This document shows, piece after piece, positions 42,746 through 62,653 of a DNA stretch of 64,000 nucleotides. Location: IMG/VR virus record IMGVR_UViG_3300027712_000018; one strand, 5' to 3'. The stretch comes from a virus. The notes under the pieces were generated by a model, which worked only from the letters and a program-made list of their open reading frames with translations, was not told the origin of the DNA and made no database searches. A program made the translations under genes and the position numbers. How positions within the stretch are numbered: position 1 is the stretch's first letter; each line of letters starts with the position of its first letter.

Positions 42746-43204
42746 ATGGCAACTCTTAAAGGTAGATTTAAACCAAACAACCCGTCTAAATACAGCGGCG
42801 ATCCTACTAACATTATTTATAGATCATCGTGGGAACTTAAGGTTATGATGTTTTTAGATTCACATCCAAATGTTTTGAAATGGAATTCGGAAGAAATTGT
42901 TATACCATATGAAAGCCCAGTTGACGGAAGAATTCACCGATACTTTCCCGACTTCTTTGTAGAACAAATAAATAAGGATGGTAAGAGAGAAAAGGTTTTG
43001 ATTGAAGTCAAGCCTAAACATCAGACTATCGCACCTAGTGTCGGCAATAAAATGACACCAAAAGGTATGATCAGTAAGAAGTATCTGAATGAAGTTATGA
43101 CATATGGCATCAATCAAGCCAAGTGGACATCAGCTCGAAAAATATGCAAAGATCGTGGTTGGAAGTTCCAAATCATGACAGAAGATCATTTAGGGATTAA
43201 GTAA
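42746..43204 (+). CDS. gp4: Head completion nuclease gp4
   Basis: GRFKPNNPSKYSGDPTNIIYRSSWE, WNSEEIVIPY, HRYFPDF, IEVKP and NQAKW. Confidence 0.92.
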   Translation: MATLKGRFKPNNPSKYSGDPTNIIYRSSWELKVMMFLDSHPNVLKWNSEEIVIPYESPVDGRIHRYFPDFFVEQINKDGKREKVLIEVKPKHQTIAPSVGNKMTPKGMISKKYLNEVMTYGINQAKWTSARKICKDRGWKFQIMTEDHLGIK

Positions 43205-43800: not shown

Positions 43801-44451
43801 ATGCCATTCAATTTATCCCAATTTAGAAGTTCTATAAACAATAACGGTATTGCTAAGACCAACACTTATGAGGTAATCATTGGAGTTACTTCATCATTAC
43901 AAAATATCGCCAACGTCACGATGCCAATTACCAGTGAGTTGACTCTGAGATGTCAGTCTATTCAATTACCCGAAATCGACTTGATGACGTTGCCATACTA
44001 CCCAAAAGTAATCGGGGGTGGTGAACGCCGAGTTGTTGGTATCAATCAATTCAAAGTCATTCCAATGGAGTTTATCGTTGACACCGATATGCGGATTGTT
44101 CAGTTCTTTCAGAATTGGTTACAAGGTATTGTCAACTACTATTCGCCTCCTGGTTATAACTTTAATGCCATCAACGATATCCAATTACCATATGAGCTAT
44201 CATACAGAGACGAATATGCTGTTCAGGTAACCATCAACGTCTATCCTCAAGGTATGATTAACGGTGACGAGACACCGCAGACCTATCAACTATTCAGAGC
44301 CTTTCCGATAAACATGGGTAACATCACACTGAGTTATGCGGATGAGAACAAACACATGATTCTTCCAATCGGTTTCACATACGATTCGATTGAAGCATCA
44401 GGTTTGAAAAGAGGCCTTAATCTATCAGACATCACAACTGGATCATTATAA
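43801..44451 (+). CDS. Tail tube initiator / tube-like protein (gp54/gp19 family)
   Basis: GIAKTNTYEV, LRCQSIQLP, FFQNW and YQLFRAFPINMGNITLSY tube-fold pattern. Confidence 0.7.
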   Translation: MPFNLSQFRSSINNNGIAKTNTYEVIIGVTSSLQNIANVTMPITSELTLRCQSIQLPEIDLMTLPYYPKVIGGGERRVVGINQFKVIPMEFIVDTDMRIVQFFQNWLQGIVNYYSPPGYNFNAINDIQLPYELSYRDEYAVQVTINVYPQGMINGDETPQTYQLFRAFPINMGNITLSYADENKHMILPIGFTYDSIEASGLKRGLNLSDITTGSL

Positions 44452-44469: not shown

Positions 44470-45165
44470 ATGAGTTTGCCTAAAATTGATTTGCCACTAT
44501 TCGAACTAACACTTCCGTCTACTGGCAAGAAGTTAAAGTATAGACCTTTTAATGTTCGTGAAGAAAAGATTCTTCTGTTAGCACAAGAATCCAATGACTT
44601 GGATCAGATCGTCTTAGCAATTAAACAGATCATTACCAACTGTGTTGTCGATATTGATGTTGACACTTTGCCTATGTTTGACTTAGAGTATATCCTTATA
44701 CACATCAGATCAAAGTCTGTCAACAACGAAATTGAATTCAGCATAATAGACGCCGAGACCGAAGAGAGCATCAAACTCAAACTCGACTTGAATACCGTCG
44801 AATTAAAGATCAATGAGAAACACACTAAGAAGATTGCCATCAACGACGACTACACCCTTATCATGAAATACCCAACGATTGATCAGATCAAAGAACTGCG
44901 TGAATCAGAAGACTCCGACTACGAACTGATGGTTGGCTCGATTGATATGTTGATCAGTAATGATGGTGACAAGATCTATAAGTTCTCTGAGTTCTCTAAG
45001 GCCGAAGTGACGACCTTTATTGAAGACCTCAATGCCAAAACGGTCGGTGATATCAAGTTCTTCTTTGAGACACTCCCCGTGTTACGTGTCGAATTTCAAT
45101 ATAAGAACAATCTAGGCAACGACAGAACCTTTGTATTGGAGGGACTGAACAGTTTTTTTATCTAA
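44470..45165 (+). CDS. gp26: Baseplate hub assembly chaperone gp26
   Basis: MSLPKIDLPLFELTLPSTGK..KYRPFNVREEKILL, FDLEYILIHIRSKSV, MKYPT; ends EGLNSFF. Confidence 0.9.
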   Translation: MSLPKIDLPLFELTLPSTGKKLKYRPFNVREEKILLLAQESNDLDQIVLAIKQIITNCVVDIDVDTLPMFDLEYILIHIRSKSVNNEIEFSIIDAETEESIKLKLDLNTVELKINEKHTKKIAINDDYTLIMKYPTIDQIKELRESEDSDYELMVGSIDMLISNDGDKIYKFSEFSKAEVTTFIEDLNAKTVGDIKFFFETLPVLRVEFQYKNNLGNDRTFVLEGLNSFFI

Positions 45166-45196
45166 TGGTGAGTCACAGTGATCTGGCTCACTATTA
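45138..45196 (+). other. Putative programmed -1 ribosomal frameshift signal (SD + T_TTT_TTT + hairpin)
   Basis: GGAGG 45138-45142; heptamer T TTT TTT 45153-45159 in the gp26 frame; 13-bp stem-loop 45163-45196; -1 frame open into gp51. Confidence 0.7.
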
Positions 45197-45329
45197 TAAA
45201 AACAACTTTTCTTTGATGCAATACCATAAATATTCACTGAACGATATAGAGAATATGATACCCTACGAACGTGATCTGTACATTACCATGCTGATAGAAT
45301 CACTAGAAAGAGATAAAGTAAATGGCTGA
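45165..45329 (+). CDS. gp51: gp51-like baseplate hub assembly domain (54 aa; missing from ORF track)
   Basis: Manual translation MVSHSDLAHYYKNNFSLMQYHKYSLNDIENMIPYERDLYITMLIESLERDKVNG, the conserved small gp51 of T4-like phages. Confidence 0.85.
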   Translation: MVSHSDLAHYYKNNFSLMQYHKYSLNDIENMIPYERDLYITMLIESLERDKVNG

Positions 45330-46906: not shown

Positions 46907-47821
46907 TTAATCTTCTGCGAGTGTCTTGAAGAAACTCATATCTGGATCATCATCGTCAATGTCTGGAGATGGAGTCTCTGCCAGTTTAGGAGCTTGACGC
47001 TCTTTGAACTTAGGAGTATAATCCATCTCCTCGTCGTCCTCAGCAGCATTGCCTGTGGGTGCGTGGTTGCTGCCGTCAAGACCAAGAACCTTGTAGAACT
47101 TAGCCTTGAGTTCCTCATAAGACTTGAAGTTTTTAGGATCGACGATCTCTTTGAGGGAGTGTTCCTGCTTGTAGACCGATTCAAGGGCATCATCATCAGT
47201 CAGCAATGGACCCTTGGCCATAAAGTCTGACTTGTCGTAGTTCTGATAACCTTCATACTTGCGGATCTTAAGCTGGAAGTTTGCTCCTTCCCACAGATCA
47301 AATGGGTTAATCTTTTCTTCACCGTATTGTGGTGCCATCAAATCCTTGAGCTTCTCAAAGATCTTCTTACCATACTTATACAAGAATACCTTGCCTTCGT
47401 TCGAAGGATCGGCGGGGTCTTTTACGATGTAGATGTTTGAGTAGTAGTTCTCACGGCGCTTCTGCTTACGTACTTGTTTACGTGCAGGCGAATCGTCATC
47501 CTTGGTGGAGTTCCAAAGCTCGGAGTTGAACTCAGAAACAGGGTCAGGAAGACCTAGAGTGGTGAGTGAGTTCTCAATGTAGTAGATGCCGTTTGGTCCT
47601 TGAAAGCCGTGATCCCAACGGCGAACCCAAGGCATATCTTCGCCTTCTGGTGGGGGAAGGAAACGAATGACTGCATAACCGTTGCCAGCCTTATCGACTG
47701 CTGGTTTCCAATACTTTTCGGAGTCGTCGTTGTAACTTGACTTGCCCATCTTGGACAGTTGATCGTTCAGGTTCGACATAGCCGAAGAACGATTCTTTTT
47801 GAGGTCTGCGAAATTAACCAT
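46907..47821 (-). CDS. gp32: Single-stranded DNA-binding protein gp32
   Basis: WKP.VDKAGNGYAVIRFLP, HGFQGP..YIENSLTT, YKYGKKIF, NPFDLWEGANF.LKIR and acidic tail. Confidence 0.95.
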   Translation of the reverse strand: MVNFADLKKNRSSAMSNLNDQLSKMGKSSYNDDSEKYWKPAVDKAGNGYAVIRFLPPPEGEDMPWVRRWDHGFQGPNGIYYIENSLTTLGLPDPVSEFNSELWNSTKDDDSPARKQVRKQKRRENYYSNIYIVKDPADPSNEGKVFLYKYGKKIFEKLKDLMAPQYGEEKINPFDLWEGANFQLKIRKYEGYQNYDKSDFMAKGPLLTDDDALESVYKQEHSLKEIVDPKNFKSYEELKAKFYKVLGLDGSNHAPTGNAAEDDEEMDYTPKFKERQAPKLAETPSPDIDDDDPDMSFFKTLAED

Positions 47822-62295: not shown

Positions 62296-62520
62296 CTATT
62301 TGAAGTAAACGTGAAGATATTTGTAGAGGCCAGCGTCACCCGCCAGAATTTCAGTGCCGTCGATCAGGAAGGTTTTGTTTCCTTCGACAACGGTCACCTG
62401 AATGTCTTTGCCATATTTGGTACGGGTTTCGGTGATGGTCCCAAGGAAGGGAACCCCATCATAGAAACCTGTCACTTCGCAACCGACAGCGTTATAGAGA
62501 GCGTTCATAAACTCGTTCAT
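62296..62520 (-). CDS. Hypothetical early protein
   Basis: Likely start MNEFMNAL at 62520. Confidence 0.5.
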   Translation of the reverse strand: MNEFMNALYNAVGCEVTGFYDGVPFLGTITETRTKYGKDIQVTVVEGNKTFLIDGTEILAGDAGLYKYLHVYFK

Positions 62521-62521
62521 C

Positions 62522-62653
62522 TCAGGCCTCACAAACCATAAAGGACACCAGACGGGTCATGATGTAATCATCTTCCGTCATCTCATCCACAGCGGCGAAC
62601 AACGAAACTACAGCTTCGTTCATCCAGCCCATCATCATCTCAGCAGTAACCAT
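62522..62653 (-). CDS. Hypothetical early protein (43 aa, not in ORF track)
   Basis: MVTAEMMMGWMNEAVV...VCEA behind GAGGAG and the promoter at 62681. Confidence 0.4.
   Translation of the reverse strand: MVTAEMMMGWMNEAVVSLFAAVDEMTEDDYIMTRLVSFMVCEA

Follow-up and report, generated by a model that had tools for sequence, protein, structure and literature searches.

A probable programmed -1 frameshift on the gp26-like gene of a marine T4-like phage and its relatives

Do T4-like phages make a tail assembly chaperone in two lengths from one gene, in the manner of the G and GT proteins of phage lambda? Xu, Hendrix and Duda reportedly described in 2004 a conserved -1 frameshift in tail assembly chaperone genes. 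It is held to be almost universal among long-tailed phages, and a later review calls it conserved 'except T4' (Atkins et al. 2016, PMC5009743). We took up the question at one junction in a 64,000-nucleotide (nt) stretch of viral DNA (IMG/VR record IMGVR_UViG_3300027712_000018), called the window below, which is part of a marine T4-like phage whose nearest database relatives are cyanophages at low DNA identity. Here a gene for a gp26-like protein is followed by a small open reading frame (ORF) of the kind annotated as gp51. An earlier reading of the window made from the letters alone (the sequence-only reading) had proposed that a -1 frameshift fuses the two. Our analysis indicates that a programmed -1 frameshift on the gp26-like gene very probably yields a G/GT-type pair of 231 and 286 amino acids (aa).

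The gp26-like ORF ends AAC AGT TTT TTT ATC TAA, with the TAA at 45163, and its run of T residues forms an in-phase slippery heptamer (Table 1). Read in the -1 frame, the same letters give TAT CTA ATG GTG... and continue into the small ORF of 54 aa (45165-45329). The heptamer, this shifted frame and a GGAGG motif 10 nt upstream all lie where the sequence-only reading had placed them, and the stem-loop that it had described downstream, burying the gp51 ATG, is present base pair for base pair. In conceptual translation, the predicted fusion consists of 230 residues of the gp26-like protein and 56 more, with EGLNSFF before the junction and YLMVSHSDLAHYYK after it; the predicted tryptic peptide across the junction in this window is TFVLEGLNSFFYLMVSHSDLAHYYK. 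The gp26-like protein matches PF12322 over its full length (181.6 bits versus a gathering cut-off of 24.5; residues 11-230 on profile positions 4-218 of 219). The small module matches phrog_634 (4.3e-21) and aligns to positions 236-277 of 282 of phrog_150. We found no second PF12322-like gene in the window; one 11.9-bit match on the minus strand (62299-62556) was taken as noise.

The arrangement at the junction exceeds chance expectation, because T7 or A7 homopolymer runs are depleted in the window (7 seen versus a mean of 26 expected from dinucleotide-preserving shuffles, with all 100 shuffles giving at least the observed number) and because only one of the 48 ORFs of at least 150 aa, the gp26-like one, carries an in-phase slippery heptamer within its last 15 codons and at least 40 open -1 codons after it.

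We compared the junction across 80 IMG/VR loci (34-91% gp26 identity) and 12 annotated phages of very different lineages, namely S-PM2, Cr30, HTVC008M, Ochrobactrum phage OC, Pseudomonas phage Astolliot, Citrobacter phage Ci1, Aeromonas phage AsSzw2, Rhizobium phage P10VF, Stenotrophomonas phage BUCT608, Acinetobacter phage nACB2 and Vibrio phages Kuja and nt-1. This sample gave 64 distinct homologous junctions (25-91% identity). The small ORF was in the -1 frame at 77 of 77 related loci. Phase alone is weak evidence, because TAATG and ATGA overlaps also give a -1 frame, and we therefore relied on the absence of start codons, on synonymous sites and on variable stop positions. A T_TTT_TTN heptamer stood in phase, inside the region where a shift would work, in 63 of the 64 distinct junctions. 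The lineages that keep it comprise Kyanoviridae, non-Teven Straboviridae, Pootjesviridae, Otagovirus, Menderavirus and phages of Caulobacter, Pelagibacter and Acinetobacter. The sequence-only reading had named an alignment of this kind as a check on its proposal, and the proposal came through it.

Synonymous sites within these 63 heptamers were fixed where slippage would demand it. The X position was always T (third-position background 0.36), though the residue to which it belongs varies (D 23, S 21, N 14, T 5), and the first Phe codon was always TTT (0.75 elsewhere in the gene), with TTC never found there. The Z position varied freely (C 33, T 27, A 2, G 1), even where Phe becomes Leu. Judged from the aligned sequences, this is the pattern expected of a slippery heptamer and not of a requirement for Phe-Phe. 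The -1 frame encodes a conserved peptide, FF-x-[LIV]-x-[LV]-[SCA]-H-x-x-L-x-x-[YF]-[YF]..., which aligns without gaps from the heptamer onward, and this register holds for zero-frame stops at distances of 7, 10 and 31 nt, counted from the heptamer's first base.

If the small ORF were an independent gene, a free 54-aa gp51 would be made from ATG 45165 by termination-reinitiation at the TAATG, and the T7 run would merely encode a conserved Phe-Phe. The overlap of this ATG with the stop codon fits such an arrangement, as do the databases, which annotate two genes, a habit that the sequence-only reading had correctly anticipated. We scanned the -1 frame of the junctions from the upstream stop to four codons past the heptamer. 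A start codon of some kind lay near the junction in 20 of 63, and ATG in 15, but no ATG, GTG or TTG was available to the small ORF in the other 43, and a start was combined with a Shine-Dalgarno (SD)-like motif in only two. In the window, ATG 45165 is part of the stem's 5' arm, and no SD precedes it by 5-13 nt. The fixed X position and first Phe codon are not explained by a need for Phe-Phe, which T4 gp26 satisfies with TTC TTT, and in T4 gp51 the module is fused in frame. We consider two independent genes improbable; reinitiation at ATG 45165 is a possible side route in the window and cannot be the mechanism of the family.

The lack of start signals at most junctions also accounts for the inconsistent annotation of the small ORF, which is given depositor starts 33-51 nt downstream of the gp26 stop in some records (51 nt in HTVC008M), clipping the conserved peptide, and is wholly unannotated in Acinetobacter phage nACB2 (L092:3715-3890) and Synechococcus phage S-WAM2. 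The fusion was annotated in none of the 13 records inspected, in which the small ORF was truncated, arbitrarily started or left out.

The same 286-aa fusion would arise if RNA polymerase added one U on the T7 run, so that a subset of messenger RNAs encoded it in frame. The homopolymer is there in the window, where T7 runs are otherwise scarce. However, 36 of the 63 junctions have only T6 (TTTTTTC, TTTTTTA or TTTTTTG), and characterised bacterial transcriptional slippage uses runs of about eight to nine or more, T6 being too short for efficiency. The run is also strictly locked in the X_XXY_YYZ phase, and a stem about 7 nt downstream in several unrelated lineages suits a ribosomal stimulator. 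We regard transcriptional slippage as an unlikely source of the fusion.

Homopolymers are error-prone, and an in-frame equivalent of the fusion exists in T4 gp51, so a sequencing or assembly error splitting a single 286-aa gene might be suspected. Against this, the same phase recurs in 63 independent distinct junctions, from isolates and metagenomes alike, and with both T6N and T7, and the 150 best representatives of 3,651 clusters of gp26 relatives all stop at one common point, with lengths of about 230-250 aa. Among the 120 and 150 best gp26 relatives, none was an in-frame fusion of about 285 aa; a search for longer proteins containing the small module also found none, which is weak evidence. 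The chance that the junction is an artefact appears negligible.

Two kinds of departure from the usual heptamer were seen. Vibrio phage Kuja (L091:3715-3789, NC_048827.1) has the sole junction without the canonical heptamer, reading AAC CTT TTT CAA TAA, that is, C_CTT_TTT. Its -1 frame is nonetheless open, homologous (…SDHSLEEFF…) and without a start codon, and its genome has a single PF12322 gene; Kuja may use either a weaker slip at the ribosomal aminoacyl site only or some other mechanism. In several lineages (loci L026, L030, L031, L033, L043, L048, L050 and L061), two slippery heptamers overlap about 13 nt before the gp26 stop, both of them in phase: A_AAT_TTT leads straight into T_TTT_TTC (…CAAATTTTTTC…). 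These lineages may have a tandem shift site or an alternative one.

T4 itself offers an independent view of the two predicted products. T4 gp26 and gp51 both match the whole PF12322 profile (residues 1-206, 8.8e-64, and residues 1-201, 3.9e-52, respectively) and are thus paralogues. The small ORF of the window aligns to residues 203-248 of the 249 of T4 gp51, its last 46 residues (E 9e-7). We built a profile from 62 conceptual fusions. Its match to T4 gp51 was a single colinear domain that crosses the junction (profile positions 23-281, residues 15-245, 6.6e-12), whereas its match to T4 gp26 stopped at the C-terminus, ...GLKEFFEL. Coverage of phrog_150 was alike, with T4 gp51 spanning positions 13-280 and T4 gp26 positions 14-235. 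Because of this colinearity, the short product has its counterpart in T4 gp26 and the long product in T4 gp51.

This correspondence carries two expectations, both of which were borne out. If T4 gp26 and gp51 are the short and long forms, T4 should carry two PF12322 genes where frameshift-type phages carry one. T4 does have two, and each of nine complete genomes of the frameshift type has one. A heptamer on which no shift depends should be able to decay; T4 gene 26 serves as a natural control, for it keeps the Phe-Phe as GAG TTC TTT, in which the slippery run is lost. T4 genes 26 and 51 are divergently transcribed, so T4 cannot make the fusion. The sequence-only reading had taken the 231-aa protein and the fusion to be the G/GT system of the T4 superfamily. 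T4 paralogy, gene number and the fold ranking described below support this for the frameshift-type relatives, and T4 has to be exempted from it.

The sequence-only reading had further proposed an SD-like motif and a hairpin as stimulators of the slip. Both are real in the window. The stem begins 3 nt past the heptamer, but its G+C-rich core does not begin until 7 nt past it, within the 5-9 nt downstream expected for the stable stem-loop of a dnaX-type signal. Folding gave a free energy (dG) of -17.3 kcal/mol for the hairpin (z = -3.3 versus shuffles) and a dG of -16.3 for the 50 nt following the heptamer (z = -6.0). In the clade of the window (L001-L004) the hairpin persists, with G:U pairs turned into G:C, as the encoded residues change, and stems at the same place are formed by unrelated sequences in L010, Cr30, L048, S-PM2 and nACB2. 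Placed on the family alignment, the stem of the window pairs in 55.6% of cells, compared with 36-44% in slid controls, and has a covariation score of 0.178 (0.11-0.15 in slid controls), reached by four of 500 shuffles. Sequence support for the hairpin across the family is thus modest, and the covariation that had been anticipated proved partial. We rejected a universally conserved downstream hairpin, since z was below -2 in only 21 of the 64 junctions.

A conserved SD-like stimulator was not supported either. Only 29 of 63 junctions have GGAG or GAGG at 5-18 nt before the heptamer, and the motif overlaps conserved Glu-Gly codons; for these two reasons its stimulatory role is not established.

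We asked what the fold of the gp26-like protein says about its function. In an exhaustive structural comparison of its AlphaFold2 model (mean predicted local distance difference test score 89.8) with 48,161 chains, ranks 1-3 were taken by 2ob9 (HK97 gp13; Z 7.7), 3fgx (7.6) and 3klu (YqbN; 6.7), all aligned on gp26 residues 1-89 over 79-84 residues (83 of 104 for 2ob9); the rows below had Z 5.0 and 4.2. A separate model of residues 1-95 returned the same three chains in ranks 1-3 (2ob9 Z 7.2, 3fgx 7.9, 3klu 6.5). With this model Foldseek, run against 350,542 chains, also placed 2ob9 and 3fgx first (probability 0.85 and 0.91; template modelling (TM) score 0.60 for 3fgx; E 0.12-0.34). Foldseek gave nothing significant with the full-length model, and a gp26 alignment profile produced only spurious weak matches among PDB sequences. 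HK97 gp13, Rbstp2171 (3fgx) and YqbN are tail assembly chaperones (PMC9603447). The single scores are middling, and what counts is the agreement of two methods and two models in the ranking. On these models the N-terminal domain of gp26 has a fold-level likeness to tail assembly chaperones, as distinct from demonstrated homology. We infer, with good support, that the gp26-like pair functions as a G/GT-type chaperone.

Two further structural matches were recorded. PDB entry 5ir0 (ORF19 of a Vibrio cholerae element resembling phage-inducible chromosomal islands, a phage satellite) ranked just below the three chaperones (Z 4.7-5.0; Foldseek TM 0.51) and may share the tail assembly chaperone fold. 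The C-terminal domain of gp26 (44722-45150, residues 85-227) weakly matched the C-terminal peptide-binding domains of Hsp40/DnaJ chaperones, which made up seven of the top 50 rows (Z 2.9-3.7, 46-49 residues aligned) and are a lead only.

The junction sits among plus-strand genes for gp4 (head completion), gp2 (DNA end protector), a gp54-like protein, the gp26-like protein, the small ORF and a 516-aa ORF (Table 1). On the minus strand, gp48, gp53 and one more tail protein lie upstream, and an ORF just downstream (46907-47821) appears gp32-like, by eye and by synteny with the annotated gp32 homologue in P10VF. The order gp54-like, gp26, small ORF, large ORF is conserved among relatives. The sequence-only reading had seen in it the order tube, G, T, tape measure. 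The first gene, however, is of the gp54 type by synteny (its counterparts in nt-1, Ci1 and P10VF are annotated gp54 or tube initiator) and is not shown to be the major tube gene. The last is a putative tape measure gene; its counterparts by synteny in Cr30 and HTVC008M are annotated as tape measure, and an atlas match to a T4_Tape_measure cluster (rank 20, score 0.90) is a lead only.

Table 1. Position of the predicted frameshift signal, its products and adjoining genes in the window
Feature	Coordinates	Strand	Remarks
gp26-like gene, zero-frame product of 231 aa (short, 'G-like' form)	44470..45165	+	PF12322 T4_baseplate 2.2e-53; phrog_150 positions 5-232 of 282
Slippery heptamer T_TTT_TTT, proposed site of tandem -1 slip of two tRNA-Phe (Phe transfer RNAs)	45153..45159	+	X_XXY_YYZ phase; 3 codons before gp26 stop
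-1-frame extension, 56 codons + stop ('T-like' module)	45159..45329	+	includes 54-aa 'gp51' ORF 45165-45329
Span of predicted 286-aa frameshift fusion (long, 'GT-like' form)	44470..45329	+	conceptual translation
Downstream hairpin, 13-bp stem, 8-nt loop (probable stimulator)	45163..45196	+	45163-45175 pairs with 45184-45196; two G:U pairs; buries ATG 45165
SD-like motif GGAGGG (possible stimulator)	45138..45143	+	GGAGG 45138-45142, 10 nt upstream of heptamer
gp54-like tube-fold protein	43801..44451	+	immediately upstream of gp26-like gene; phrog_45 tail tube 5e-24, PF23849 Phage_TTP_2 7e-9
Putative tape measure protein, 516 aa	45322..46872	+	identity inferred; overlaps end of small ORF

In Cr30 (L082:3872-4120), HTVC008M (L083:3903-4235) and P10VF (L089:3872-4300), one more small ORF separates the gp51-like module from the tape measure gene. 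The window has none there, its small ORF directly overlapping the 516-aa gene. Further upstream, the gp4-like head completion protein (42746-43204, plus strand) matches the Pfam family Tn7_TnsA-like_N (PF08722, 6e-24), a nuclease fold.

We propose the following course of decoding. Most ribosomes would terminate at TAA 45163 and release the 231-aa protein. A fraction would slip back by one base with two tRNA-Phe on U_UUU_UUU and would then read 56 further codons in the -1 frame; the hairpin, with its strong core 7 nt downstream, would probably aid the slip, and the GGAGG 10 nt upstream might do so too. The resulting 286-aa protein would carry as its C-terminal module what is annotated as 'gp51', and the two products would correspond to T4 gp26 and T4 gp51. 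The pair may serve the tape measure and baseplate hub as a tail assembly chaperone of the G/GT type, in which the shared part would hold the tape measure and the extra module would recruit a tube or hub partner.

Some background on T4 accords with such a function. The T4 hub contains the tape measure gp29. Leiman et al. (2010, PMC3004832) list T4 gp26 and gp51 as chaperones of hub assembly, and gp51 is required for assembly and absent from particles (PMC3004832).

Several observations weigh against this proposal. The heptamer U_UUU_UUY is not among the most efficient in bacteria. The hairpin is absent or weak in about two-thirds of the junctions, and the SD-like motif is confounded with coding. 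The window, unlike most of its relatives, has an ATG overlapping the stop codon, so that some independent reinitiation is possible. The fold scores are middling, with Z below 8 and Foldseek E-values of 0.12-0.34, and classical G proteins are only about half as large as gp26. The 516-aa ORF has no match to any Pfam or PHROG family and no BLAST similarity to the tape measures of Cr30, HTVC008M or T4. In T4, gene 51 is separated from the tape measure gene 29 by genes 27 and 28.

Tail-chaperone frameshifting is a known class, and our data support its occurrence in the T4 superfamily, which was thought to lack it. A literature search, outside of which most subscription journals lay, found no report of a gp26/gp51 frameshift or of gp26 and gp51 as equivalents of G and GT. 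The data indicate that the T4 superfamily does use the tail-chaperone frameshift and that T4 proper, with its two paralogous genes, is a derived case; this would explain why T4 has been called the exception among long-tailed phages (PMC5009743). We lean, by somewhat more than even chances, towards an ancestral state of one gene with a -1 frameshift on U_UUU_UUY, retained by essentially all non-Teven T4-like phages (cyanophages, pelagiphages and many others) and replaced in the Tevenvirinae by gene duplication, with T4 recorded as a lone exception for that reason.

The proposal gives T4 gp26 and gp51 a concrete, testable function, and under it hundreds of T4-like genomes, among them those of ecologically dominant marine cyanophages and pelagiphages, are predicted to encode a protein that their annotation lacks. 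With frameshift and duplication, nature would offer two solutions side by side, through which the setting of the ratio between the two chaperone forms could be studied.

Compared with gpG/gpGT of lambda, the locus has the same layout: two overlapping ORFs just upstream of a (here putative) tape measure gene, the first of them with a slippery heptamer in phase close to its end and the second in the -1 frame without start signals of its own, and short and C-terminally extended products, which here are predicted. The N-terminal domain of the first ORF of the window ranks tail assembly chaperone structures first. In contrast to lambda, the heptamer is U_UUU_UUY instead of G_GGA_AAG, the 'G' part, at about 230 aa with a second domain, is roughly twice the usual size, and the upstream neighbour is a gp54-type tube-fold protein; moreover, the T4 homologues are described as baseplate-hub chaperones and not as tube or tape-measure chaperones. 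The structures 2OB9, 3KLU and 3FGX are matched over most of their approximately 100 residues, but at a sequence identity of only 9-12%, and gp26 has an additional C-terminal domain of about 140 residues.

With E. coli dnaX the window shares an upstream SD-like element, a heptamer and a downstream stem core at comparable spacing. It differs in that its heptamer is U-rich and not A_AAA_AAG, in that the shifted frame extends the protein instead of truncating it, and in that relatives keep the SD-like element and the hairpin inconsistently. The closest comparison is with T4 gp26 (208 aa) and gp51 (249 aa), which belong to the same family. T4 gp26 and the zero-frame product of the window share their end point, ...GL..FF.., and T4 gp51 is colinear with the predicted fusion, C-terminal module included. 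In T4, however, the two forms come from separate, divergently transcribed paralogous genes without a slippery run, whereas here a single gene and a predicted frameshift would supply both.

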